Virus record (IMG/VR): IMGVR_UViG_3300037471_001733
Location: 22,201 to 86,200 of that record
Direction: 5' to 3' (one strand)
DNA length: 64,000 bases
Source: a virus
Taxonomy: Duplodnaviria > Heunggongvirae > Uroviricota > Caudoviricetes
Made by a program: the position numbers and the translations under genes. Every line of letters starts with the position of its first letter. The stretch's first letter is position 1. Below the pieces are notes generated by a model. The model saw only the letters and a program-made list of their open reading frames with translations, was not told where the DNA came from and did not search any database. Below are positions 3,728 through 52,064 of this stretch, piece by piece.

Positions 3728-4455
3728 TGCGCGGACCTCAGTCGGAATTGATGCATGGAACGAGGGGCCTGTGACTGGCTGCTGCCGGAGCCGAGAACTT
3801 CGATGGCGGCCAGCGTCCAGGTCTGTGAAGCGGGGGCCGTCATGCCAATCGCGTAGGTGCCAGTGGCGCCTGAATCGGCGTGGTAGCCGTGGTACACGCA
3901 GTACTCGTTGGCCAGTGTGTCGTTGTTCTGCGCAACGGCAGCAGTGCGCTGCGTGAACGTCCCGGCATTGCTGCGGTATGTCTGCGATGTCAACGCAGTG
4001 GCCGCACGGTCGCCGATGAACATCACCGCCGCCGAGTTGGCCCCGGTGGTCGTCAAGTTGACGGACGGAGCCGTGCCGGTACCGGAGCCAGAGACAACGG
4101 CACCGACGCCGCCAGCACTGCGGAACTGGTACGCCGTCGCGCCGAACACGATGCCATCGTCTCCTTCAGTGCCAGCGCCGCGCGAGACCGAGATCGTCAC
4201 GGACGCTGCCGTGGACGCAGTGGCGGTCCAGATGTAGAGCTCAGCGTGCGACGAGTCGACCGCGACGTCCGCGCGTTGCGTGTACGTGTTCGTCGCGCTG
4301 TCGCTAACGACTAGGCCGTCAATGTGCGATTTCAGGGTGCCAATGACGACGATCAGGTCGCCAACCTGCGTCGTGAGCGACATGGTCAGCGCGCTGCCGA
4401 AGGCCTGGGCCCATGTGCTCGTGTTTACGCTGGTGACAAAGGTTGGTGCTGCCAT
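3724..4455 (-). CDS. hypothetical protein (243 aa), Thr/Ser/Ala/Gly-rich beta-type, virion module
   Basis: ORF packed 3 nt after the beta-helix gene; no motif recognised. Confidence 0.6.
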   Translation of the reverse strand: MAAPTFVTSVNTSTWAQAFGSALTMSLTTQVGDLIVVIGTLKSHIDGLVVSDSATNTYTQRADVAVDSSHAELYIWTATASTAASVTISVSRGAGTEGDDGIVFGATAYQFRSAGGVGAVVSGSGTGTAPSVNLTTTGANSAAVMFIGDRAATALTSQTYRSNAGTFTQRTAAVAQNNDTLANEYCVYHGYHADSGATGTYAIGMTAPASQTWTLAAIEVLGSGSSQSQAPRSMHQFRLRSAQ

Positions 4456-7785: not shown

Positions 7786-9033
7786 TCAGGACGCGGAAAT
7801 TTTGAGCTTCTTCATCGCGTCGCTCTGACGCACGCCGCCACCGACGCGCTTGCGGGCGCGGTACACCACGAGGCCGTTGTCGGCTTCGGTGATGTAATCG
7901 GCCTGGAAGCCCAGGCCGATGCGATCAACGATGGTGTATGCGCGCTTGAAGTCACCCCACAGCACCGGGTAGGCGCTGGCCGCGATGTCCGGAAGGTCAG
8001 GGAACTCAACGTACGGAGCGCCCAAGATCGTGTTCGCCACGGCGTTGGCGAAGCCAGGGGTCCAGAGGTAGTTGCCTTGGCCGTCCTTAAGCTTGCGGAT
8101 GTCACGGATGGTCTTGCGGTTCAGCGCGAACATCGCGTTGGCAGCGTAGGCCGTCTTCAGCTCGAACTGCAGGTTGATCAGGCCGTCAGACGTGATCTTG
8201 GTAGCGTCGCCGCTGACCACCTCACCGATGCCAGAGGCCACCAGCAGGCCCTCCATTTGCTGAGCGGCGGAGCCAACGCCGTTGATGGACTCGGCGCCTT
8301 CCTTCACGGCCATCTGCTCGGCGACTTCCATGCGCAGCTCGCCAAGGAGGTCGTAGTCCGAATCCTCCAACATCTGTTGCGACACGCGGTTGCGCGCGAA
8401 CATTTCCGGGGCCGTGATCTCGCCCATCCCATACTTGGGATCGGTCGTGTCCGTACGGGTCTCGATTTCACCGACGCGCTTGGCGCTGCCGGTGCCGACA
8501 CGCTTGGGCCACTTGTACGAGTGGCCGCCGATAATGCGCACGGTGGCGAGTCGACGGATGGGCGACTGCTCCACGATGTCCTTGAGGATCGCGCGCTCCA
8601 GATCCGGCGGGGCAAGCAGGTAGCCGGCGGACTGGTCGTCGCCCTTCACCAGAGACGCCATGTGCGTCTTGATGACCTGCATGTCCTCCAGCGAGCGGGC
8701 CTCATGGCGGGTGCGCATCACGCGGTTGAACGCGGCTTGCAGCTTGGCGTTCTCGGCGGCGGAGTCGGCAGCGGTGGAGCCGGGGCGCTGCAGCATGGTC
8801 TGGACTTGATCCAGTTGCTCCTGCATGGCCTTCGCAGCATTCTGCTGGGCCAGCAGTTGCTGGTTCATGTTCTCGTAGCGATCCAGCGTATCGCTGATCG
8901 CCTCGACCTTGGCAGTCAGGTCGCCAACGGCCTTGCCGTCAGCCTTGGCCGAGATGAGCTTGTCGTTGTGCTCACGCAGTTGCGTGACGGCTTCCATTAC
9001 TTCCTGGATGCCATCATTGGTGATGTTGGGCAT
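7786..9033 (-). CDS. major capsid protein, HK97 family (with N-terminal delta/scaffold-like coiled coil)
   Basis: 415 aa. N-terminal coiled coil then GGYLLAPPDLERAILKDIVEQSPIRRLATV... typical HK97-fold MCP; position after ClpP-like protease. Confidence 0.9.
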   Translation of the reverse strand: MPNITNDGIQEVMEAVTQLREHNDKLISAKADGKAVGDLTAKVEAISDTLDRYENMNQQLLAQQNAAKAMQEQLDQVQTMLQRPGSTAADSAAENAKLQAAFNRVMRTRHEARSLEDMQVIKTHMASLVKGDDQSAGYLLAPPDLERAILKDIVEQSPIRRLATVRIIGGHSYKWPKRVGTGSAKRVGEIETRTDTTDPKYGMGEITAPEMFARNRVSQQMLEDSDYDLLGELRMEVAEQMAVKEGAESINGVGSAAQQMEGLLVASGIGEVVSGDATKITSDGLINLQFELKTAYAANAMFALNRKTIRDIRKLKDGQGNYLWTPGFANAVANTILGAPYVEFPDLPDIAASAYPVLWGDFKRAYTIVDRIGLGFQADYITEADNGLVVYRARKRVGGGVRQSDAMKKLKISAS

Positions 9034-9099: not shown

Positions 9100-10182
9100 C
9101 TACTTGCTGATGAGGCTCAGGATGTGGGCCTTCAGGTTCGCCAGCTCGGTTGCGCTTTGCTCGTCACGAGCAGGCGCGGCCGGAGCCGCAGGTGCGGCAG
9201 CGGCGGGTTCCCGAGACTCGTCGCGAGGCCCGGTGTGCAGCGCGGCCTTGGCCAGTGCGATGACGCACTTGGCCTCGGCCGCAGAAAGGCCAACCGCATC
9301 ACGCAGTTGGCGCTCAAGGATGCGGACCTCAGGCGTGCCGTCGTCGTCGCCGGCAGGCACGAGGTCTTGCGGGGTGTTCTTGAAGAAGGGCAGCATGGCC
9401 GAGCGCGCATGCGTCAGCGCGGCCTTCTTCTCCTTCTTCTTGGCCGGCACCATCGTGTCGGCGAATCCTTTGTCCACGGCGTCCTGGCCGCGGAACCACG
9501 TTTCGGCGTCAACCCACGAGGCGATTTCGGCGCGGTCGCCACCGGTGCGCGCGACGTAGATGTCGATGAGGCCGGCTTCCAGCGTGTCCAGCACGTCGGC
9601 TTCCTTGCGCAGGGCCTTGGCGTTGCCGGCGAGAATCGTCCACGGCGCGTGGATCATGAAGTTCGCGCCTTCAGCGATGCGGATCTCGTCGCCGGCCATC
9701 GCAATTACGGAAGCGATGCTGGCGGCAATGCCATCGACGTGCACGATGATCTTGGCCTTGTGCGTGGCCAGCGCGTTGTAGATGCTGACGCCGTCGAACA
9801 CGGACCCGCCTGGCGAGTTGATGTGTACGTGCAGCTCATCAGCATCCAGCGCGGCGAGTTCGCGCACTGTGTCCTCGGCATTAACGCCGCCGTCCCAGTA
9901 GCCGCCGATGTCGCCGTATACAAACAGCTTCGGCGCTTCGCCTTCGTCGGCGGCCAAGCGCAGGTGGCCAGGGCCCAGCGCGCGCGGCGCCAGATTCATT
10001 GCCCGCTCGGGCAGGCCGGCGAGATTGATGACGGGTTTGGTCATTGCGGCCGTCCCTTCCTCATTGCTTTCTTGTTCCTCGCCCAACTCGGAGAGGACTG
10101 CGGCCAGCGACACCTGAGCGTCGCGGATGCGAGATTCGTTGCGGGCGCTCAGCACGCGCCCGGCGTTCAGACGTTGGCCCAT
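9100..10182 (-). CDS. prohead maturation protease, ClpP/S14-like, with C-terminal scaffold-like extension
   Basis: VYGDIGGYWDGGVNAEDT...HINSPGGSVFDGVSIYNAL...VDGIAASIASVIAMAGD ClpP-fold signature; between portal and MCP. Confidence 0.85.
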   Translation of the reverse strand: MGQRLNAGRVLSARNESRIRDAQVSLAAVLSELGEEQESNEEGTAAMTKPVINLAGLPERAMNLAPRALGPGHLRLAADEGEAPKLFVYGDIGGYWDGGVNAEDTVRELAALDADELHVHINSPGGSVFDGVSIYNALATHKAKIIVHVDGIAASIASVIAMAGDEIRIAEGANFMIHAPWTILAGNAKALRKEADVLDTLEAGLIDIYVARTGGDRAEIASWVDAETWFRGQDAVDKGFADTMVPAKKKEKKAALTHARSAMLPFFKNTPQDLVPAGDDDGTPEVRILERQLRDAVGLSAAEAKCVIALAKAALHTGPRDESREPAAAAPAAPAAPARDEQSATELANLKAHILSLISK

Positions 10183-10185
10183 GGG

Positions 10186-11481
10186 CTACCCTTGGTTGCG
10201 CGCTGAAAGCGCTTGACTGGATGCCGCCAAGTCGTTGTTGTCTTGCTGTGCCGGGGCCGCGCCAGCGGGGTTGCTTGGCATGCCTAATTCCGGATCAGAG
10301 GCGTCGCCCATGTTCACGGGCGCGCGGTAGATTTCGCCGCCCTCGTACGGGTTCTGCTCCTCGTAGGCGCGGATCTCGTTCGCGTTGAGCGCGCCCATCT
10401 GCCAGAGGCGGAAGTAGTACTCGGCGCGGTCACGCGCGGCGCCGCGCATCAAGGCATTGGCGTTGAACTTCGCGTAGATACCGTCGTCCAGGTCACGCTC
10501 GCTAAGCAGGTTGCAGTCGATGCTCTGCTCGATGCGTTCGTACCAAGGCGCCAGGCAGTGCACCACGTGCGCCAGGAACATCTGCTCCGCGCTGGCGTAA
10601 GTGGCCGTCTTGTCGCTGTAGCCGACCATCAGTGGCGCGCACCTAAAAATTCTGCACACCTCTTCGATCTGGTGACGTCTCGTTTCGAGATGCTGGCTAT
10701 CAACGCCCGTCATCGACGTCGGCACAAACTTGGCGCCGCGGTCAAGAATCATCGGGCGGAATCTCGCTTCGCCTGTCATGTTCTTCTCGACCCAGTTGCG
10801 CAGAGCAAGGAACTGGTCCGGAAGCAGCTTGTCGTCCACGCTGTAGATGCCAGTGGACTGCGCGCCATTGGCATGCATCAGCGCATGCGCCTCTTCGGTC
10901 GCCATCGCAAGGCCTATGGCCTCGCGAGCCAACTGCAACGGCTTTAGGCCGTCATAGCCGTTCCAACTCAGCCCTTTGACGTGCCAGATCGCCTCAGCCG
11001 GGAAGTCCTGCGACTGCCCAGTGATCTCGCTGCTTACGCGGTACACCGGCCGGCGGAACTGGTCCACATCCACGCACACCTCGTGCGGGAGAAACGGGAT
11101 CAACTCGCGGATCTTGCCGTTGACGACGTTCTTGAACGCCACGAAACGACCGGCCAAGCACACATGCGCGGCCAGCATCTCGCGGAACTCGAAGGACGTC
11201 TGCCAAGGGTTCGGCCGGCGGTACAGCACGCGATACAGCGGGTGGTCCTTCGCCGGATCGCTGCCGCCGTCGTCACGCTCCTTGTAGAGCTTCAAGGGCA
11301 CCTGCGCGATGCCCTCGGCAATCACGCGCACGCACGCCAGGACCGTCGTCACCTGCAGCGCGGTTTCCACCGTGACGTTCTGACCCGAACGCGACGCAGG
11401 AAACCAGCCGCTCCAGAAAGGCTCAGTGAACGCCTGCGCCCGGCGCTGCCGCGGCGCCATCATCTTCGACAGGAAACTCAC
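10186..11481 (-). CDS. portal protein, HK97 family
   Basis: 431 aa; ETALQVTTVLACVRVIAEGIAQVPLKLY and overall pattern of HK97-type portals; between TerL and protease. Confidence 0.9.
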   Translation of the reverse strand: MSFLSKMMAPRQRRAQAFTEPFWSGWFPASRSGQNVTVETALQVTTVLACVRVIAEGIAQVPLKLYKERDDGGSDPAKDHPLYRVLYRRPNPWQTSFEFREMLAAHVCLAGRFVAFKNVVNGKIRELIPFLPHEVCVDVDQFRRPVYRVSSEITGQSQDFPAEAIWHVKGLSWNGYDGLKPLQLAREAIGLAMATEEAHALMHANGAQSTGIYSVDDKLLPDQFLALRNWVEKNMTGEARFRPMILDRGAKFVPTSMTGVDSQHLETRRHQIEEVCRIFRCAPLMVGYSDKTATYASAEQMFLAHVVHCLAPWYERIEQSIDCNLLSERDLDDGIYAKFNANALMRGAARDRAEYYFRLWQMGALNANEIRAYEEQNPYEGGEIYRAPVNMGDASDPELGMPSNPAGAAPAQQDNNDLAASSQALSARNQG

Positions 11482-11756
11482 TCGGCAGCCTTCCCGTCAC
11501 CGGCACGCGCGCGGATGCCCATCAGGCCCAGGCCCAGCGCCAGCAAGCCGCCGACGATGAAGCCAGCCGGCAGGGAGTACAGGCCGGTGCCATAGGCAAC
11601 AGCCCCGGCGCCGCCCAGCGCCAGCATGTCCGGCATCAGAAAGGCCAACAGTTCGCCGCCGGCCGCAATCAGGCCCAGCATGGCGCGGCCAAGGGTCAAC
11701 ATTCGGCGGGCCAGAAATGTCCTGGCACCGGCGATCTTCGTTCGCAGGTTTTTCAC
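11478..11756 (-). CDS. small membrane protein (92 aa)
   Basis: ATGA overlaps at both ends; Gly/Ala/Leu-rich with at least 2 predicted TM helices. Confidence 0.5.
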   Translation of the reverse strand: MKNLRTKIAGARTFLARRMLTLGRAMLGLIAAGGELLAFLMPDMLALGGAGAVAYGTGLYSLPAGFIVGGLLALGLGLMGIRARAGDGKAAE

Positions 11757-13513
11757 GGCGTCAGGACTTCCCAGAATGACTTTCCAGTGGACTCGGTGGT
11801 TCTGGACATCAAGCCCACGGCCATCACAGCCGCCACGATGAGGTCGATGCGGCCCGTGGCCTTTTCCTTGCTGAGCTTGCGGTTCTCGGCGTCATCCATC
11901 ACCGTCACCGCGTTGCTCGCACACCAGTTGAAAACTGGGTGGTCGTTGTGCGCCAACTCGTTGTTGAGCAGCATTCGCTCGAACTCTTCAACGGCTGGCG
12001 AAGCCTCTTTGTAACCTTGCCCGAACGCGACCATGGGCGGTAGGCTGATGCCTTCGTCGTCGGCAAGCGCCAGCAAGTCTTCGATGCGCCAGCGGTCGTA
12101 TGCGACGCCCTGGATCTCGAATGCCTCGGACAGCGCGGACAGCCGCTGCAGCACGTTGCGCTTGCTGATCGCGCGCCCCGGCGTGGTGTCCAAGTGCCCG
12201 GCAGCTTTCCACTGCACGTAGGGCACTCGATCGGTTTCGGCCTTCTTCTGCAGCCCCTCATCAGGCAGCCAGGCGAACGGCACTAGGTGCCACGGCTCGC
12301 CTTCCTCTTGCGGCTCAACCAGCAGCACCAGCCCCGTAAGGTCGGTGGTGGACGACAGGTCCAGCCCGGCCCAGGCTCGCCGGCCGCGCAGGTCTTGCCA
12401 GTTGAAGGTGCGAATCGCACTCTTCCAAACGTCGGCCGACAGCCACGGCGAATCGGCATCCGTCCACTGGCAGAAATTCAGCCGGCGGACGATCGCCTCC
12501 TTAGACGGCATGCCGCGCGCTTCGGTCACCTGCTCGCGCAGGTACTTCATGCCCGGCAGATCGGCGTCCTGCAGCGAAGGGTTGGCCTTCACCCAGCACG
12601 ACTCGTCCGAGAAAGGATCCTCGCCTTCATCTAGGGCGCACACGAAACTGAAGAACGCATCGTCCTCCAGCGTCCCCGCTGCGACCTTTGCGCCGTACTC
12701 GTGGTACGCCCAGCACGGCCCCCGTTTGTCGGAGCCGCTGTTGGTGATCATGAAGATCAGCGCCTGCCGCCGGCTCTTGGTGCCGGCGCGCATCATCTCC
12801 ACGACCGTGTTGGTCTTGTGCTCGTGCAGCTCGTCGATGAGCGCAATGTGCGGCCGCGGGCCGGACTGCCCATCGTCCGAGCTGATCGGGCGGAAGAAGC
12901 TGCCGGCCTGCAGGTAGGCCAGGTTCCACACCCGCTCGCCCGTGCCGCTCTTGGTCAGCCGCTTAGCGAGTTCCGGCGACTGGTCCACCATGGCCACCGC
13001 GTCGCGGAAGAGGATCATGGCCTGATCCTTCTTCGTCGCCGCAGCGTAGACCTCTGCGCGCGCCTCGCTGTCGGCGGTCAGGCCAAGAAGCCCAATGCCC
13101 GCCGAAAGGGGCGACTTCCCGGAGCCCTTGGCCGTCTCGACGTAGGCAACACGGAACCGCCGCCAGCCGTCAGAACCCTTCCAGCCGAACAGACTGCCGA
13201 TGACGAATTTCTGCCACGGCAGAAGCTCGAAGGGCTTTCCCTCAAAGTCGCCGCCGTTGAGCTTCAGGACGTTGCGGTAGTACCGCAGCGCCTTCAGGGC
13301 GGTCTCCAGGTCCCAATTCAGGCCGCGTGCCGGGCCTTTCTCCAGGTCGCGCAGGTGGCGCGCGCATGCCGCGCGCACATGCGGGCCGGCGATGCGTTTG
13401 CCGTCAACGACGGATTGGGCGTACTCGGTGACCGGATCGTCACCAGTCGGGACGTCAGCCGAAGAATTCCTGTAAGTGGTCTTCCTTTTGGTCGTCGTCG
13501 GCGTTTTGGACAT
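11753..13513 (-). CDS. terminase large subunit (Terminase_1 type)
   Basis: 586 aa; Walker-A-like VETAKGSGKS, LIDELHEH Walker-B-like, C-terminal nuclease region; follows TerS. Confidence 0.9.
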   Translation of the reverse strand: MSKTPTTTKRKTTYRNSSADVPTGDDPVTEYAQSVVDGKRIAGPHVRAACARHLRDLEKGPARGLNWDLETALKALRYYRNVLKLNGGDFEGKPFELLPWQKFVIGSLFGWKGSDGWRRFRVAYVETAKGSGKSPLSAGIGLLGLTADSEARAEVYAAATKKDQAMILFRDAVAMVDQSPELAKRLTKSGTGERVWNLAYLQAGSFFRPISSDDGQSGPRPHIALIDELHEHKTNTVVEMMRAGTKSRRQALIFMITNSGSDKRGPCWAYHEYGAKVAAGTLEDDAFFSFVCALDEGEDPFSDESCWVKANPSLQDADLPGMKYLREQVTEARGMPSKEAIVRRLNFCQWTDADSPWLSADVWKSAIRTFNWQDLRGRRAWAGLDLSSTTDLTGLVLLVEPQEEGEPWHLVPFAWLPDEGLQKKAETDRVPYVQWKAAGHLDTTPGRAISKRNVLQRLSALSEAFEIQGVAYDRWRIEDLLALADDEGISLPPMVAFGQGYKEASPAVEEFERMLLNNELAHNDHPVFNWCASNAVTVMDDAENRKLSKEKATGRIDLIVAAVMAVGLMSRTTESTGKSFWEVLTP

Positions 13514-20453: not shown

Positions 20454-22262
20454 ATGTCAGCACAAGACTTGATTGTTAGGATCAACGCAGCCGCCCAGGT
20501 GGCCCCGGAGCAACTGCCCAAAGGGGCGCAGCCGCGCGACCACATGATTGCCTTTGAGTACACCGACGCCCACGGCACGCGCGGCTGCATGCGCATCCTG
20601 AACACCCGGGCGCGGCTGCTGGCCTTCGCTGAGCAGGTGCGGAAGAACGCGGCAGCATTCGACGGCAAGCCGCGCAGCAAGCCCGCCGGGCCGCGCAAGA
20701 TTGCCGGCGCATCCCCGCTTTCCACGGCGCGCGCACTGCTCAAGGATGGCGCGCGGGTTGAAGCCCTCGCAGCGCTTGAGGCGCGCGGCGGGGAGGTGTT
20801 TTTCGGCGCCGCTGGCGTGCCTGTGCTGCATCAGGTTGCACAGCGCGTGGAGCACGAGGGCCGCCGCTGGGTTGTCACGCGCTGCGCCGTTGATGGTCTC
20901 ATCTACCTCATTCACGAGGCGTCCGGGCTGTCAGCAGGCGGCAAGGGCTTGCCTGAGATGCGCAGCATTGCGGATGCCCTGGCGCGGCTTGAGCTCGTGC
21001 ACCGGGACGAGGCGGAAAACGGCTACCGGCAGCGAATGATTGCTGCGATCGAGCAAGCGGCGGATTACGACCAGCAGGCGGCGCGCGCGGCTTTCGAGGC
21101 GTGCGATGGTCTCAAGAGCAAGGATGCCGCGCCGGTGGCTCAGGAAGCGTACCAGCAGGCGCGCGCGCTGTCGGCGGCGCAGGTGGCGCCCGATGTCGAG
21201 CCGGCAGTAGATGCAGACCCCTCCCCGGTGGAAAGCGAAGCCGAGGCGGCACCCCCTGTAGCGGAAACGCCTGCGGCAGCTGACACCCCTGCAGCGGAAA
21301 TCGAGTCCAGCGCGCCGGCGGTTGCGCCAGCATCCCCTCCGGCGGATTCACAGGCAGGCGCTGCACCCCCTGCGATGGAAAGCGCGCAGCCTGCGCCGCT
21401 TGCCACCGCGCCAGGCCGATCGGATGCGCTCATCGCGCGGGCCATCGCTTGGGTTGCCGTAGTCTGGGGAACCGCCAGCGTGCCGAGCGTTGCGGACTAC
21501 CGCGCCGGCCGGTGCGATGACACATTCCCGTGGGCGGGCGGCAGCCGCGCCGCCGGCTATCTGACATGGGCCGACCTCATTGGCGAGTGCATGGCCGCGC
21601 TGGAGCGCGACGACAGCGCCGACCAGGCGGCACGAGACGCCGCACTGCAACCACCGACCCCCATCCGTAGGAAAGGCCCGCGACAACATGAGCAGCACAC
21701 CCCATCCCGTGCAACCCGCAGTGCCAACCGGCCGCGAGTGGTGGACCCGCGGGCTGCTCGACTGGCACGCCGAGGCGCTGCACGCCGCCCAGGAGATCGC
21801 CGCGCTGCGCGAATCACTGGCTGCGGAGCGCGCAATGGTCCGCGAGCTGCAGGAGGCGCTCGCTGCCCGCCGGCAGGCCGCTTGACCCCTTCCCGGGGAA
21901 TCACGGCGCCACAAGCTTGCCGCCCCTGGCGCGACGCCAGCGAAACCCGAGACTGCACCCATAAAAACCTGGAGCACAGCATGACCTACACCGAAGCCAT
22001 CCAAGCCCTGCGCGACGCTATTGCGCAGGCCCCGAAGGGTGAAAAGCTGCAAGCCTTCCAAGCCAAGCGGGAGAAGATAATAGGGGCAATGCCCAAGGTG
22101 GAAATCTGTGGCGGCGAGCAGTGCATCCGCTATCCCAAGGGCTACCGCTTTGACTGCGGTCGCGAGGTCCACACGGACTGGATGTGGCAACCGTTTGCCA
22201 GCGAGGAAATCGCCATGCGGCCTGGCAACCTGCCGTACATCCTGCGCATGCCGGCTGCCTGA
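20454..22262 (+). CDS. long open frame; N-terminal ~400 codons look like a real two-domain protein with Pro/Ala/Glu repeat linker; 3' end probably composite
   Basis: AGGAG RBS before ATG 20454. No in-frame stop for 1.8 kb; frame turns Arg-rich (junk-like) from about 21660 to 21980, then is in frame with the 93-aa ORF. Confidence 0.4.
   Translation: MSAQDLIVRINAAAQVAPEQLPKGAQPRDHMIAFEYTDAHGTRGCMRILNTRARLLAFAEQVRKNAAAFDGKPRSKPAGPRKIAGASPLSTARALLKDGARVEALAALEARGGEVFFGAAGVPVLHQVAQRVEHEGRRWVVTRCAVDGLIYLIHEASGLSAGGKGLPEMRSIADALARLELVHRDEAENGYRQRMIAAIEQAADYDQQAARAAFEACDGLKSKDAAPVAQEAYQQARALSAAQVAPDVEPAVDADPSPVESEAEAAPPVAETPAAADTPAAEIESSAPAVAPASPPADSQAGAAPPAMESAQPAPLATAPGRSDALIARAIAWVAVVWGTASVPSVADYRAGRCDDTFPWAGGSRAAGYLTWADLIGECMAALERDDSADQAARDAALQPPTPIRRKGPRQHEQHTPSRATRSANRPRVVDPRAARLARRGAARRPGDRRAARITGCGARNGPRAAGGARCPPAGRLTPSRGITAPQACRPWRDASETRDCTHKNLEHSMTYTEAIQALRDAIAQAPKGEKLQAFQAKREKIIGAMPKVEICGGEQCIRYPKGYRFDCGREVHTDWMWQPFASEEIAMRPGNLPYILRMPAA
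21218..21382 (+). repeat. five copies of CCCC(C)T-N4-6-(T/C)GGA(A/T)(A/T) motif inside the linker-coding region
   Basis: Copies starting 21218, 21252, 21286, 21334 (degenerate), 21366; 32-48 bp spacing; encode PSPVESE/PPVAET/TPAAEIE/SPPADSQ/PPAMESA. Confidence 0.55.
21688..21885 (+). CDS. hypothetical coiled-coil protein (65 aa), nested in another frame of the long ORF
   Basis: AGGAAAGG RBS; protein-like sequence (REWWTRGLLDWHAEALHAAQEIAALRESLAAERAMVRELQEAL); stop in TGACCCCTTCC motif. Confidence 0.5.
   Translation: MSSTPHPVQPAVPTGREWWTRGLLDWHAEALHAAQEIAALRESLAAERAMVRELQEALAARRQAA
21981..22262 (+). CDS. hypothetical protein (93 aa)
   Basis: RBS ctGGAGcacagcATG; protein-like composition. 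Confidence 0.5.
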   Translation: MTYTEAIQALRDAIAQAPKGEKLQAFQAKREKIIGAMPKVEICGGEQCIRYPKGYRFDCGREVHTDWMWQPFASEEIAMRPGNLPYILRMPAA

Positions 22263-40302: not shown

Positions 40303-40820
40303 GCCTTGGCTCCTTCAGCGGGCTCGTCTTTTCGGCGTTGGTCAGCTTCGCCAGCCAAGTGCAGGCCATGAATCGCTAGCGCCTCACGAATCCTGGCGAT
40401 GGATGTGGGTCCAATGCCGCCGAACCGGCGCCGAGTCAGGTCCGCAGGAGTGAGCCTCGTCAGGGCGCCAATCGTTCGCACGCCATTGCGGTCCAAGGAG
40501 CCGGTCACCCTGGGCGTGAGGCCATCAAGCGCGGCGGGCGAGAAGGCCAGGAAGCCGACGTCATCAGGGTGCGGGCCCTGCTCGTGGCGCGGCTCGATGA
40601 GCGGCGGACGGGCCGGAGACGGCGCAGGAGCGGGCTCGGGCGCCGGCACAGGGATCGTGAAGCTCACCGGCTTCAGGCGCACCTTCAGCATCTCGTCGGC
40701 CACCATGTACGACACGATGGCAACCTGCTCCGGGCTGATGTCGCCGCCGTAGGCGCCCAGCAGGGACTGCATGGCACCCTCAGCGAGCTTGTCGCGCAGC
40801 TTGGTCAATTGCTTGCTCAT
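40299..40820 (-). CDS. protein with C-terminal RNA polymerase alpha-CTD-like helix-hairpin-helix domain (173 aa)
   Basis: LTPRVTGSLDRNGVRTIGALTRLTPADLTRRRFGGIGPTSIARIREALAIHGLHL parallels RpoA CTD (LSVRSANCLK..I.YIGDL....E.LL...N.G.KSL.EI...L...GL.L). Confidence 0.55.
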   Translation of the reverse strand: MSKQLTKLRDKLAEGAMQSLLGAYGGDISPEQVAIVSYMVADEMLKVRLKPVSFTIPVPAPEPAPAPSPARPPLIEPRHEQGPHPDDVGFLAFSPAALDGLTPRVTGSLDRNGVRTIGALTRLTPADLTRRRFGGIGPTSIARIREALAIHGLHLAGEADQRRKDEPAEGAKA

Positions 40821-41599
40821 GCTCCAGCCCTCCGCGCAGTCGGCCGGTAACTCTCCCAAGGAAACGGCACCCAGCGACACGTCTCGGCCAGTCGATCAAA
40901 GGTGCGCTCACCAACGAACTGCTTGAAGCCCGCCGAGTTCTGGTTCGTGAGCAGGATGGTCGGCTTGACATCGCGGTAACGGCCGTCCAGCACGTCGAAG
41001 ACGATGTTCTGCTCGCTATCGGTGCCGTACTGCACGCCAACCTCGTCGATGACCAGCAGGTCCAGGTCCGTCAGGTAGCGCAGCACCTGCGTCTCGCTCT
41101 TCTCGCTGTCGCGCCGCCACGTCTCGCGGATCATGCGGATCAGGTCCATGCAGGTCACGTAGCGCACATCCGGCGAAAGCAGCGACTGCAGGACAGCGCC
41201 AGCGAGGTGGCTTTTGCCGGTGCCCGGCTTGCCGGCCAAGATCAGCCCGGAGCCCTTGCGCGAGTGCTCGGCAAAGTTCTCCGCGAAATCGCGCGTCACC
41301 GTCAGCGCATGGCGCTTCTCGTCGGTGTCGGCCACGAAGTTGTCGAACGTGCGGCCGATGAAGCGCGTCGGGATCATGGCGCTGGCCAGCATCCGGCTAT
41401 GGCGCTCTTCAGCGTCGCGGCGCTTTTGCTCAGCCTCGGCCGCGCGGTCCTCCTTGGCCTTGGCCTCTTCGCAGGCAGGACAGCGCGACCAGATGCGGCC
41501 GAAGATGTTGCGGCTCGTGTAGTCCCCGTGCTCGAGGCAAGAGGCTGCGCGCTCTTCCACCTGGCGCCTCACGGTGTCAGACAAGCGATCCATCGTCAT
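40817..41599 (-). CDS. DnaC/IstB-like AAA+ helicase-loader (260 aa)
   Basis: GLILAGKPGTGKSHLAGAV Walker A, DLLVIDEVG Walker B; follows replication initiator. Confidence 0.8.
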   Translation of the reverse strand: MTMDRLSDTVRRQVEERAASCLEHGDYTSRNIFGRIWSRCPACEEAKAKEDRAAEAEQKRRDAEERHSRMLASAMIPTRFIGRTFDNFVADTDEKRHALTVTRDFAENFAEHSRKGSGLILAGKPGTGKSHLAGAVLQSLLSPDVRYVTCMDLIRMIRETWRRDSEKSETQVLRYLTDLDLLVIDEVGVQYGTDSEQNIVFDVLDGRYRDVKPTILLTNQNSAGFKQFVGERTFDRLAETCRWVPFPWESYRPTARRAGA

Positions 41600-42632
41600 C
41601 CACGCCTTCGCGGTAGTCCTTGGAGTCAAAACCAGCGTGCTTGCTGGCACCTTGGCTGCCGGCGACCGGCAGTTCGTCCATCCAGCGCCCCTGGTTCAAC
41701 CAAGTAGACGGATGCGGGATGTACTTGCCGCCATCGCGCGTCCAGTCAGTGGACTGCTTCTGCACCTTGATGGCATTCAGCATCGTGGCCAGCAGCTCAA
41801 CTCCAACTTGGCGCTTTTCAAAGGCGCGACGTGCCGCGTCAATGCCGACCTTCCTCGGGTATGCGCTCCAGAAATCCTCGAATCGACCGTCACCCCCAGG
41901 GGGGTTAGGGGGGTATTGGTTCCCTTGACGGTTAATTGACGGTTCTCCGTACCGTTTTTGGGACTGCTTCTCGGGAAAAACGGTACCGCTTCCACGGAAA
42001 AACGGTACTGCTTCACCATCCTCCGAAGCTGTACCGTTTTTGGCATAGCTTCCCAGACGTCGAGTCCGCTCCGCGATTGTTGCCGCGCGCAACTTGCTGG
42101 GAGTGCCTTCGTTCTTGCACAGCGGGTCCAAGTCGTACTGGCGGAACAGCCTCATTTCTGCCGCGCTGGCCTCCTCCGGCGTTTCAAACACCTCCAACAC
42201 CTCGCGCACCAGCAGGCGGCCGGCAGCGATCTGCTCGCGCGGCCACTTGCCGCTTCCACGATAGGCGTCTGCCTCGGGGTCTCCGCAAAAAGAGCGCTTA
42301 CCCAGGTAGAAATTGCCCGTCTCCGGGTCTGTCACTCGGTACGTGTAGTGCGTGGCTGACGCCGTAGGCAGGCCAAGCAGCCGATAGACCGGGATGGAGC
42401 CGGTCACACCAACGCGCTTGCCCGTGTCCATAAGCAGACCGGCGTCTTGCAAGTTCTTGATGTTCTTGATGAGAGTCTTGCGGTCGCAGCAGGTGTCCTG
42501 CTCCAGCCGCAGGATGCTCGGGTAACAGAACCCGAACTCGTCGGCGTAGTTGGCAAGGCAGACCATCAAGAACTTTTCGCTGGACTTCGGCATGTCCAGC
42601 TTGAAGGCGTAGGCGAGGGCTGGGATGCTCAC
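41577..42632 (-). CDS. replication initiator/replisome organiser (wHTH N-domain, DnaD-like C-domain) with embedded GIY-YIG-like module
   Basis: GTGA overlap at 42632. KFLMVCLANYADEFGFCYPSILRL wHTH; YTYRVTDPETGNFYLGKRS...YRGSGK...EEASAAEMRLFRQY GIY-YIG-like; FEDFWSAYPRKVG...PSTWLNQGRWMDE C-domain. Confidence 0.7.
   Translation of the reverse strand: MSIPALAYAFKLDMPKSSEKFLMVCLANYADEFGFCYPSILRLEQDTCCDRKTLIKNIKNLQDAGLLMDTGKRVGVTGSIPVYRLLGLPTASATHYTYRVTDPETGNFYLGKRSFCGDPEADAYRGSGKWPREQIAAGRLLVREVLEVFETPEEASAAEMRLFRQYDLDPLCKNEGTPSKLRAATIAERTRRLGSYAKNGTASEDGEAVPFFRGSGTVFPEKQSQKRYGEPSINRQGNQYPPNPPGGDGRFEDFWSAYPRKVGIDAARRAFEKRQVGVELLATMLNAIKVQKQSTDWTRDGGKYIPHPSTWLNQGRWMDELPVAGSQGASKHAGFDSKDYREGVDDDGSLV
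41926..42045. repeat. iteron cluster inside the replication gene (candidate origin of replication)
   Basis: AAAAACGGTAC at 41976-86 and 41998-42008; inverted GTACCGTTTTT at 41949-59 and 42031-41; TTGACGGTT x2 at 41926-45; G-tracts at 41899-41913. Confidence 0.6.
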
Positions 42633-42895
42633 AGCGGACCTCCCCGCACGTTCCATTGCCGCGCAGCCTCTACTGCAGCCTCCATGGCGTCTTCCAGCAC
42701 CACATCGGGCCCGTGCGACTCGCACTGCCAGCACTCGACCTTGGCGTTGAATGCCAGGTCGCCGTTGTTGTCCGTGGTCGGGCTGACCTCAGCGCATGCG
42801 TTGCCGTCGTTGCAGAACGGGCACGGCTTCAGGCCGGCGTTGATTTTTTCCAGCTCAGCGTTGAACCGTTTGCTGTTGAAACGGGGGTTGCTCAT
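42629..42895 (-). CDS. lar: Lar-family restriction-alleviation protein (88 aa)
   Basis: LKPCPFCNDGN...VECWQCESHGP...EAAVEAARQWNVRG matches Lar-family pattern (CPFCG...C..C...eAi.aWNrR). Confidence 0.65.
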   Translation of the reverse strand: MSNPRFNSKRFNAELEKINAGLKPCPFCNDGNACAEVSPTTDNNGDLAFNAKVECWQCESHGPDVVLEDAMEAAVEAARQWNVRGGPL

Positions 42896-50366: not shown

Positions 50367-50432
50367 CCATCTAACTGATCCATGCCCGGCGCGGGCTGCG
50401 CGCCAATTCCACAGAAGACGGAGACGGAAACC

Positions 50433-51374
50433 ATGACTACTGCACTCGCTCTCATGAGCAACCGCCTGGCGCAACGCTTCGGCATGGTCGAAGACGCCGA
50501 GTTGATTCCTGTGCTCAAGGCAACTGCGTTCAAAGGTCAGGTCAGTGACGCGCAGATGACGGCGCTGCTGATCGTTGCCGATCAATACGGCCTGAATCCG
50601 TGGACCAAGGAAATCTACGCTTTCCCAGACCCGCAGAACGGCATCGTGCCGGTGGTCAGCGTTGACGGCTGGAGCCGCATCATCAATGAGCACCCCGCCT
50701 TCGACGGCATTGAGTTCGAGTTGTCCGGCAAGGGCGATGACATGGAGATGCTGTGCCGCATCTTCCGCAAGGACCGCAGCCGCCCGATCGCAGTGACGGA
50801 GTACTTGACCGAGTGCAAGCGTGAAACGAAGCCTTGGAAGTCTCACCCGCGACGCATGCTGCGTCACAAGGCTGAGATCCAATGCGCCCGATTGGCCTTC
50901 GGCTTCGCTGGGCTCCACGACCACGACGAGGCGGAGCGCATTGTGGAAGCATCGTCTGGCGCACCGAAGAACATGGGGGCAGCCCAGGTGGTCGAGGCCG
51001 CCGCAGCTGCGGAAATGCCGCTCGGCCTGCTGGAGTCAGCCGAGAGCGCTGCGACCGAAGGGGTGGCCATCTATCAGGAATTCTGGAAGTCAACCGGCCC
51101 GGAAAACCGCAAGGCGCTGGCTGGCCACCATGCGCGGCTGAAGCAAGCAGCCATTGACGCCGACGCGGCGCGCACGGTGGAGATGCCCACGACCGGCGGC
51201 CAAGCCGAGCAGCCCACGCTGGACCTGGTGGCGCTGGAGCGGCGCATCGGCAGCTGCAACGACGCTCAGGTGTTGCTGCTCATTGCCGACGACGTGGCCA
51301 CGCTGCCCGAGGGTGAGGATCGCGCGCGGCTGGAGAAGTTGATCGCGGTGCGCGGCGAAGCGCTGGAGGGCTGA
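50433..51374 (+). CDS. bet: single-strand annealing protein, lambda Bet (Red-beta) homolog
   Basis: Long near-identical blocks to lambda Bet from memory: LLIVADQYGLNPWTKEIYAFPD.QNGIVPVV.VDGWSRIINE, HP.RMLRHKA.IQCARLAFGFAG..D.DEAERI. Confidence 0.9.
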   Translation: MTTALALMSNRLAQRFGMVEDAELIPVLKATAFKGQVSDAQMTALLIVADQYGLNPWTKEIYAFPDPQNGIVPVVSVDGWSRIINEHPAFDGIEFELSGKGDDMEMLCRIFRKDRSRPIAVTEYLTECKRETKPWKSHPRRMLRHKAEIQCARLAFGFAGLHDHDEAERIVEASSGAPKNMGAAQVVEAAAAAEMPLGLLESAESAATEGVAIYQEFWKSTGPENRKALAGHHARLKQAAIDADAARTVEMPTTGGQAEQPTLDLVALERRIGSCNDAQVLLLIADDVATLPEGEDRARLEKLIAVRGEALEG

Positions 51375-51377
51375 TCT

Positions 51378-52064
51378 ATGGCGCTAATCGTCCACACCGA
51401 CCCGCAGGGTAGTGAGGCGTGGCTCGCGGCACGCCGCGGCATCCCGACCGGCAGCCGTTTCAAGGATTGCCGTGACTACCTAAAGCCCACGGCAGCCGAG
51501 GTCAAGGCCGGCGCCACGCGCGGCAAGCCCTCCGCGAAGCTGCTGGGCTATGCGATGGATCTGGCGCGCGAGCGGGTCGGTGGCCATGTGCCTCCCGTGT
51601 TCCAGACCGCCGCGATGCGTACCGGCCATATCGAGGAGCCAAAAGCACGACTCGCCTACGAGGAAGAGACCGGCAACATCGTGATCGAAGCCGGCTTCAT
51701 CACGACGGAAGACCGGCGCTGGGGCGTGTCGGTGGACGGCCTCGTGAAGCCCAAGGGTGGAATCGAGGTGAAGACTATGGTGAGCAGCGCCACGCTGTTC
51801 AAGGCCGTGGTCGAAGGCGACATCAGTGAGTACATCGACCAGATCAACGGCGCGATCCTGCTGCTTGAACTGGACTGGCTCGACCTTGTGCTCTGGGCGC
51901 CCGACCTGGCGCACCTGGGGCGCGGGCTCACCATCCGCCGCATCTGGCGTGACGAAGCTGCGATCCGAGCACTGGAAGCGGACCTGCTGACCTTCGTGGC
52001 GCTGGTCAATGACTTCGAGGCCGCGCTGCGTGCGCCGGCAGTGGAAACCGAAGGAGCCTTCTGA
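51378..52064 (+). CDS. YqaJ-type (lambda-Exo-fold) recombination exonuclease
   Basis: QGSEAWLAARRGIPTGSRF N-terminus, ...SVDGL....GIEVKT PD-(D/E)XK core; directly downstream of bet as in lambda. Confidence 0.75.
   Translation: MALIVHTDPQGSEAWLAARRGIPTGSRFKDCRDYLKPTAAEVKAGATRGKPSAKLLGYAMDLARERVGGHVPPVFQTAAMRTGHIEEPKARLAYEEETGNIVIEAGFITTEDRRWGVSVDGLVKPKGGIEVKTMVSSATLFKAVVEGDISEYIDQINGAILLLELDWLDLVLWAPDLAHLGRGLTIRRIWRDEAAIRALEADLLTFVALVNDFEAALRAPAVETEGAF

Follow-up and report, generated by a model that had tools for sequence, protein, structure and literature searches.

A replication initiator gene in a stretch of lambdoid phage DNA encodes, directly after its origin-binding domain, an internal domain of the GIY-YIG nuclease fold, and the DNA that follows the nuclease-coding segment carries an array of origin-type repeats. 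The stretch comprises 64,000 nucleotides of IMG/VR record IMGVR_UViG_3300037471_001733 (positions 22,201 to 86,200; hereafter the window), and the initiator is a single open reading frame (ORF) that joins a winged helix-turn-helix (wHTH) domain, the nuclease domain, a disordered linker and a helical C-terminal domain (Table 1). In the structural model, residues 94-176 form a genuine GIY-YIG fold of the Seg/I-TevI type, with catalysis as a prediction. Judged by sequence, the arrangement of wHTH and GIY-YIG domains is common to over 100 uncharacterised metagenomic protein clusters and is not unique to the window. The reading tentatively preferred here, with slightly less than even confidence, is that the module is an iteron-tethered nuclease derived from a homing endonuclease and acting on related replicons.

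The assignment of the middle domain begins with its predicted structure. In an AlphaFold2 model of the initiator, built on 21 sequences, this domain is a compact beta-beta-alpha-beta-alpha unit with a predicted local distance difference test (pLDDT) value of about 90, and it has the three-stranded sheet and flanking helices that form the core of the GIY-YIG superfamily. Structural comparison gives its highest score with the I-TevI catalytic domain (7.9, 78 residues aligned), followed by the GIY-YIG restriction enzyme PD-T4-3 (6.9), the UvrC N-domain (5.2), T4 EndoII (4.8), Eco29kI (4.5) and SLX1 (4.4). Within the superfamily, the window nuclease is nearest the Seg/I-TevI group. The preliminary description of this DNA had recognised a GIY-YIG-like segment at about residues 120-215; the fold and core residues prove to be real, and the position shifts to 94-176.

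The core residues of the fold can be traced one by one. They comprise Y98, Y109, G111, R113, D122, Y124, G126-S127-G128, W130, E159 and N174, with the "GIY" and "YIG" motifs appearing as Y96-T-Y98 and Y109-L-G111, separated by the usual 10-11 or so residues of the first hairpin. The catalytic-type Glu of helix 2, E159, precedes N174 by 15 residues. Across an alignment of 93 cluster representatives, Y109, G111, D122, W130 and N174 are conserved in all 93, Y124 and E159 in 92, R113 in 91 and Y98 in 90. The nuclease domain averages 37% pairwise identity, whereas the residues of the active-site constellation (two Tyr, the Glu and the Asn) are 97-100% conserved. Fold and conservation together rule out a chance resemblance of the motifs. 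The Tyr-Tyr spacing of 11 and the Glu-Asn spacing of 15 equal those of I-TevI; hhalign against an I-TevI sequence aligned only the first hairpin, pairing Y98 and Y109 with I-TevI Y6 and Y17.

Sequence searches point in the same direction, but by themselves they are weak evidence. Residues 94-174 match the "homing endonuclease" family phrog_314 of the PHROGs collection (E 1.7e-7), and the best PDB sequence match of the domain, in phmmer and profile searches, is the GIY-YIG protein 1ywl, at a marginal E of 0.015-0.028; the profile alignment with 1ywl spans the Glu helix. Among 14 relatives, 12 match PF19835 (SegE_GIY-YIG) and six match PF01541 (GIY-YIG), all below threshold, with a best E of 2e-4. 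The domain is placed in the superfamily by its fold and motifs and by no curated sequence model.

That the ORF is a replication initiator with an N-terminal wHTH, as the preliminary description had proposed, is borne out by its domain matches and by the DnaC-like gene next to it. Its PHROG matches are replication-initiation families over both the N- and C-terminal parts (best 1e-36), the N-terminal ones being phrog_270, phrog_1032 and phrog_391, "replication initiation (O-like)". The wHTH domain is modelled with a pLDDT of about 90 and a secondary structure of four helices followed by two strands, and a Foldseek search of the full-length model against the PDB returned wHTH proteins only, including the staphylococcal RepA N-domains 4pql, 4pt7 and 5kbj. 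Pfam Phage_rep_O found no match in the N-domain, so the window initiator is a functional analogue of lambda O and not a member of PF04492; NCBIfam holds no model for the protein. The gap between the wHTH and the nuclease is only about six residues. The C-terminal domain, helical in the AlphaFold2 model, is the presumed partner-recruiting domain. A second copy of the wHTH, GIY-YIG or C-terminal domain is found nowhere in the window. With one copy of each domain and an early-region context, this ORF is therefore the phage's initiator, and the only one of this lambdoid temperate phage.

The second feature of the gene is its repeat array. The only copies of AAAAACGGTAC in the 64 kb are four exact ones clustered within 93 bp, two direct copies between two inverted ones; shuffling gives 0.21 expected matches, and four copies were reached in none of 100 shuffles. 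Three of the four iterons extend to a 17-nt unit ending in GCTTC. A second repeat class, TTGACGGTT, is present as two copies at 11-bp spacing, the only two in the window. The preliminary description had listed these iterons, the doublet and the neighbouring G-tracts, and all three recur at exact positions (Table 1). Over the surrounding 3 kb, GC content is lowest in the repeat block (0.51 versus about 0.63). This block encodes exactly the disordered stretch between the nuclease and C-terminal domains, where pLDDT falls below 50 (residues 200-246). Iterons 2 and 3 with their spacer (41983-42008, minus strand) can form a hairpin of 11 pairs followed by CGTTTTTCCC, flagged as terminator-like; the hairpin probably arises simply because the iterons have a palindromic core, GGTACC.

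Comparison of homologous loci shows that the repeats are maintained as DNA. The motif AAAAACGG[T/G]AC, allowing at most one mismatch, lies directly 3' of the nuclease-coding segment in 12 of 19 fused IMG/VR loci and almost nowhere else in these loci of about 8 kb. A DNA alignment of ten loci has a fixed order of one iteron, two inverted iterons, one iteron and then two to three GAACCnTCA repeats at about 11-bp spacing, the latter being the counterpart of the window's TTGACGGTT doublet (GAACCGTCA). The iteron columns are invariant across loci whose nuclease-domain matches are 38-66% identical to the query, and the C5-A-G6-TTA-G6 tract is specific to the window. Other family members have different iterons at the same place (GTACAGAATCTGTAC, TAGGACAGACTCTGGACAGG, CAACCCCCGCAG). 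This pattern agrees with the earlier proposal of origin-type repeats inside the initiator's own coding sequence, which are under DNA-level conservation, and makes the array in linker-coding DNA the initiator's putative cognate origin, similar to lambda O and its ori.

A profile search with the nuclease domain over 1.84 billion cluster representatives shows how widely the module occurs. It matched 7,530 proteins at E <= 1e-3, of which 862 reach E <= 1e-10. Among the best 50%-identity clusters, 108 of 141 new top matches have the same N-terminal wHTH, and HTH_36 is matched by 92 of the 93 aligned family members. The window's type of C-terminal domain is found in only 10 of the 141 representatives, so that wHTH and nuclease form a conserved unit joined to shuffled C-terminal domains. 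The linker between the two is 0-2 residues between HMM (hidden Markov model) boundaries in 75 of 119 proteins. Ten members that were looked up are all metagenomic and have no protein names, and structure matches in BFVD are named only "helix-turn-helix domain containing protein", "replisome organizer" or "homing endonuclease". A contig scan with the single initiator protein matched three C-domain relatives only.

The module also occurs in a second initiator family. Five further matches (P0217, P0223, P0233, P0235 and P0237) consist of the lambda O N-domain (Phage_rep_O, E 1e-23 to 1e-30) followed by the nuclease module; in these Phage_rep_O/TIGR01610 initiators the module sits directly after the O N-terminal domain. 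In one such lambda-O-type locus (L106, 1810-3033), the module is followed by four 24-bp iterons, TAGGTACAGAATCTGTCAATCAGC (2488-2572), and two copies of ACTnCAAAAGACA.

Among 50,697 sequenced phage records no fused initiator-nuclease protein was found, and full-text searches of the open-access literature met no initiators with an internal GIY-YIG domain apart from the Odn papers discussed below. The earlier remark that the fusion is unusual holds for these sequenced phages and needs qualifying for metagenomes, where the family is large. The closest relatives of the module in cultured phages are free-standing genes of large lytic phages annotated as Seg-like or F-LimXI homing endonucleases. Free-standing relatives in IMG/VR (loci L018-L060) are ORFs of 150-320 residues with the nuclease at the N-terminus, and up to three occur on one contig, as in IMGVR_UViG_3300035208_004923 (425 kb; L033, L055 and L059) and IMGVR_UViG_3300022723_000094 (69.6 kb; L034, L036 and L043). 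Three copies per contig are typical of homing-endonuclease expansions in large phages. Burkholderia phage vB_BmuP_KL4 (NC_047958.1; L107, 2103-3286) likewise has a GIY-YIG gene next to its initiator gene: a free-standing gene for a 132-residue "GIY-YIG nuclease family protein" ends exactly where an O-like gene for a replication protein starts. An hhalign probability of 0.05 rules out that this gene belongs to the window's nuclease subfamily.

Alleles with and without the module bear on its history. Two sibling alleles, P0016 (307 residues, locus L013) and P0023 (223 residues, locus L067), share 89% identity in the wHTH and 73% in the linker plus C-domain, with flanking DNA that matches at 85% and 83%. 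Locus L013 has a clean extra 257 bp (3985-4241, versus L067 558-560) that corresponds exactly to the nuclease module, with a short TGA microhomology at both junctions. Both alleles keep the iterons. The insert-less junction of L067 is a perfect 24-bp iteron-like palindrome, AACAGTACCGATATCGGTACTGTT, followed by the iteron array, and this palindrome as a homing-endonuclease target is suggestive only. Together with the free-standing Seg-like relatives and the recurrence in a second initiator family, this plus/minus pair supports the homing-endonuclease derivation that had been suggested for the module.

The cultured Escherichia phage phiV10 (L066, NC_007804.2) shows the insert-less form in a viable phage. 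The wHTH of its initiator is 35% identical to that of the window, and it has no GIY-YIG domain. Inside its coding sequence (2755-2944) are six CCCAAAAACGGGA iterons and then three copies of AACCAGTCATAT, which sit where the window has its TTGACGGTT repeats. Since phiV10 has an in-gene origin without a nuclease, the origin is ancestral to the initiator family and the module is an added feature. Both phiV10 and P0023 combine the same wHTH type with CCAAAAACGG iterons and without the nuclease module, and the existence of intact insert-less alleles with the same iterons makes the nuclease unlikely to be obligatory for initiation. By these comparisons, it is probably not needed for that step.

These alleles, found when homologs without the insert were compared as the preliminary description had proposed, retain their iterons and thereby weaken its idea of nick-initiated replication. 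An accessory role, similar to homing or to that of Odn, is favoured because insert-less alleles and phiV10 initiate without the nuclease. In the preferred reading, the module would descend from a mobile homing endonuclease that became established in-frame where the origin-binding domain meets the in-gene origin. Tethered to iterons by the wHTH, the nuclease would cut near them on DNA molecules with matching iterons; the likeliest targets would be insert-less alleles in related phages or prophages. The outcome would be gene conversion or marker exclusion, with the phage's Bet/Exo recombinase helping to repair the cut from the allele that bears the module, in the manner of ICP1 Odn or the T4 Seg endonucleases, while the protein would remain an initiator through its wHTH and C-terminal domains. 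The phage's own origin might be spared, speculatively, since the 257-bp insert alters sequence and spacing beside the first iteron. Cutting and repair at the origin could also explain why the origin acts as a break point between a conserved N-terminal unit and shuffled C-terminal domains.

Several observations weigh against this reading. Only one clean plus/minus allele pair was found (L013/L067). Distances of wHTH and nuclease correlate weakly but significantly (r 0.25, reached in 0 of 999 permutations), and nuclease clades have characteristic junction lengths; both indicate mostly vertical co-inheritance and not frequent transfer. The protein would bind its own iterons, so self-cleavage must be avoided, by a mechanism that may be guessed at as above. 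In-frame retention of the catalytic residues and a fixed short tether would fit a domesticated function that benefits the phage equally well. At the level of the active site, the Glu and Asn that the preliminary description had named are in place, but the canonical position of the Arg is not matched: R113, the only near-invariant Arg and a candidate counterpart of I-TevI R27, follows Y109, the YIG Tyr, by four residues, where strand 2 ends, whereas the canonical Arg opens helix 1 about 8-10 residues beyond that Tyr. Additionally, Pfam GIY-YIG models match the window domain only below their curated cut-offs (12.4-14.8 bits versus 25).

Other comparisons of the two domains complicate a simple history. 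The same nearest neighbour is obtained by wHTH and by nuclease in 23 of 119 proteins. The nuclease of P0016 shares only 26-31% identity with its counterparts in proteins whose wHTH domains match that of P0016 at 60-66%, and the wHTH-nuclease junction of P0016 lies a few codons further downstream than in relatives; this discordance and the shifted junction indicate a separate acquisition or replacement. Short stand-alone proteins, some of which may be fragments, are interspersed among the nuclease clades. The nuclease is not the more conserved of the two domains (37% identity versus 41.5% for the wHTH); a contrary impression was a gap-counting artefact, and the argument for recent horizontal spread built on it falls away. 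Taken together, these sequences suggest a small number of old fusions that were passed on mostly by vertical descent, with the module occasionally gained, lost or replaced.

A different possibility, which we regard as unlikely, is that the nuclease is directed at the phage itself: after iteron binding, the initiator would nick or cut its own origin. Such a cut would supply a 3'-OH or an entry site for loader and helicase, or trigger a switch from theta to rolling-circle or recombination-dependent replication, as a non-HUH analogue of nicking initiators. The placement of the nuclease within about six residues of the iteron-binding domain fits this idea, as do catalytic residues that are nearly invariant in the 93 representatives, as expected for a phage-beneficial function, and a module that, in both of two unrelated initiator families, always adjoins the in-gene origin of the protein itself. 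The phage's Bet-like and Exo-like proteins could process such a break. However, the viable, cultured phiV10 and P0023 keep the wHTH type and iterons without a nuclease, and the DnaC-like loader gene downstream points to ordinary helicase loading of the lambda type. A nick would also abolish the supercoiling that is used for origin melting in lambda-type replication. The broader proposal, that a programmed cut of the own origin serves replication control and defines a new class of iteron initiators that have a non-HUH nuclease activity and include proteins of the HTH_36 type as well as the lambda-O type, appears less likely still.

It is about equally improbable that the domain is an inactive relic or a structural element, in which the GIY-YIG fold serves as a spacer, an oligomerisation unit or an extra DNA-binding surface without catalysis. 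The non-canonical position of R113, the lack of an evident His/Tyr in helix 1 and the sub-threshold matches to curated GIY-YIG models would suit such a decay, and the nuclease diverges faster than the wHTH in close pairs (for example 79% versus 99% in P0004/P0010). Yet the near-invariance of the active-site Tyr, Tyr, Glu and Asn against the low domain mean is hard to explain without catalysis or binding of metal or DNA, and Odn is active although it, too, has no His/Tyr in helix 1 (PMC8263062).

Least probable is a strict Odn-like weapon against satellites, plasmids or other competitors that have copied the iterons to hijack the initiator: iteron-guided nucleases of the GIY-YIG superfamily that act on satellite origins have evolved repeatedly (PMC8263062, PMC10448857) and iterons diversify strongly among family members, as in an arms race, but no satellite-like target was seen, the motif occurs within the window only in the initiator gene, the protein, unlike Odn, keeps the full initiator architecture and its own origin, and the idea overlaps the preferred reading of a nuclease acting on related replicons, from which it differs only in target.

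The genomic context is that of a lambdoid early region, in the order divergent repressor pair (44.3-45.2 kb), Lar-like gene, initiator and DnaC-like loader. The GTG start of the initiator overlaps the stop codon of the upstream 88-residue ORF (GTGA). A longer reading of 385 residues was rejected because all homologues share the start at MSI. The upstream ORF (42629-42895, minus strand) is a Lar-like restriction-alleviation gene (phrog_599, E 1.2e-6), and the real start of the DnaC-like loader gene is probably near 41599. On the plus strand, the interval 50382-52064 encodes a Bet/RecT-like annealing protein (phrog_252, E 2e-81) and a RecE/lambda-Exo-like exonuclease (phrog_149, E 1.6e-25), a Red-type recombination module that could process breaks made at an origin. 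The 64 kb contain no tRNA genes, and a megablast of the 2.2-kb initiator region against phage records gave no match. Most or all of the window belongs to a lambdoid phage or prophage of an organism with about 63% GC.

Table 1. Coordinates in the window of the initiator gene, its domains and repeats, and other phage genes.
Feature	Position	Strand	Details
Replication initiator gene	41577..42632	minus	351 codons + stop; phrog_270 "replication initiation", E 1.1e-36
N-terminal winged-helix origin-binding domain, residues 1-87	42372..42632	minus	Pfam HTH_36, residues 17-67, E 3.6e-10
GIY-YIG nuclease domain (Seg/I-TevI-like), residues 94-176	42105..42353	minus	
Disordered inter-domain linker, residues 196-246	41895..42047	minus	coding DNA is the putative origin
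Helical C-terminal domain, residues 250-313	41694..41885	minus	FEDFWSAYPRK...STWLNQGRW; phrog_9474, phrog_9327 "replication initiation / primosomal protein"
Iteron 1, AAAAACGGTAC	42031..42041	minus (gene orientation)	read as K-N-G-T
Iteron 2, AAAAACGGTAC	41998..42008	plus	read as V-P-F-F on coding strand
Iteron 3, AAAAACGGTAC	41976..41986	plus	read as T-V-F-P, different frame
Iteron 4, AAAAACGGTAC	41949..41959	minus	read as Q-K-R-Y, third frame
TTGACGGTT doublet (GAACCGTCA in gene orientation)	41925..41944	plus	second repeat class; starts 41925 and 41936
C5-A-G6-TTA-G6 tract	41893..41913		adjoins the repeats
DnaC-like helicase loader gene	40817..41650	minus	directly downstream of initiator; phrog_50, E 5.7e-72
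Large terminase	11753-13513	minus	
Portal	10186-11481	minus	
Head protease	9100-10182	minus	
Major capsid protein	7786-9033	minus	

To our knowledge, iteron initiators of lambdoid phages are textbook DNA-binding, helicase-recruiting proteins without enzymatic activity. The present family is large and unannotated, takes in no fewer than 108 of the 141 best 50%-identity clusters and two initiator superfamilies, and places a conserved, probably active nuclease at the origin-binding domain and the origin. If related replicons are the target, temperate phages in general would contest origins and use them as homing sites, beyond ICP1 and its satellites, and the mosaic break point at the origin, with a conserved N-terminal part and shuffled C-domains, would gain a mechanism. 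If the own origin is the target, the family would bear on how lambdoid phages switch their mode of replication. Either way, the protein would offer a natural, compact combination of a DNA-binding domain and a GIY-YIG nuclease with a predictable, iteron-defined specificity.

Among known systems, lambda O and its ori share several features with the window initiator and its gene: an N-terminal winged-helix origin-binding domain, four iterons and a lower-GC element in the linker-coding DNA of the initiator's own gene, a C-terminal domain, and a helicase-loader gene downstream. Unlike the window protein, lambda O has no nuclease domain; its N-domain is Phage_rep_O where the window has HTH_36, and its partner is lambda P where the window has a DnaC-like loader. 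The initiator of phiV10 and epsilon15-like phages ("primosomal protein I / replication initiation protein", DnaT-like) has the same in-gene origin layout and is also followed by a helicase-loader gene. Its wHTH runs straight into the iteron-encoded linker without a GIY-YIG domain, which makes it a natural insert-less form. HUH initiators such as phiX174 A and P2 A resemble the window protein only if it cuts its own origin, as origin-binding initiators that do so. Their fold and chemistry, with a covalent tyrosine adduct, are different, and the window protein contains no HUH or Y motifs; GIY-YIG enzymes hydrolyse DNA without a covalent intermediate.

The nuclease itself is best compared with I-TevI and the T4 Seg proteins, which share the spacing of 11 between GIY and YIG, that of 15 from Glu to Asn, and a modular build in which the nuclease is tethered to a distinct DNA-binding domain. 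In those enzymes, the nuclease is N-terminal, a long linker leads to the C-terminal DNA-binding domain, and the genes are free-standing or intron-encoded, whereas the window nuclease is internal, follows its DNA-binding domain after a very short gap and is part of an essential host protein. Odn (Gp88) of ICP1 fuses a RepA_N iteron-binding domain to a T5orf172 nuclease of the GIY-YIG superfamily and needs iterons to cut the PLE origin (PMC8263062). Such origin-directed nucleases have evolved repeatedly, and nuclease genes sit at boundaries of genetic exchange (PMC10448857). Odn and the window protein have in common an N-terminal initiator-type iteron-binding domain fused to a homing-endonuclease-derived nuclease of this superfamily, although Pfam finds neither RepA_N nor T5orf172, the defining domain types of Odn, in the window protein. 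Odn has no initiator C-terminal domain, is not the initiator of its phage and targets the origin of another element; the window protein, by contrast, keeps both its initiator C-terminal domain and its own iterons.

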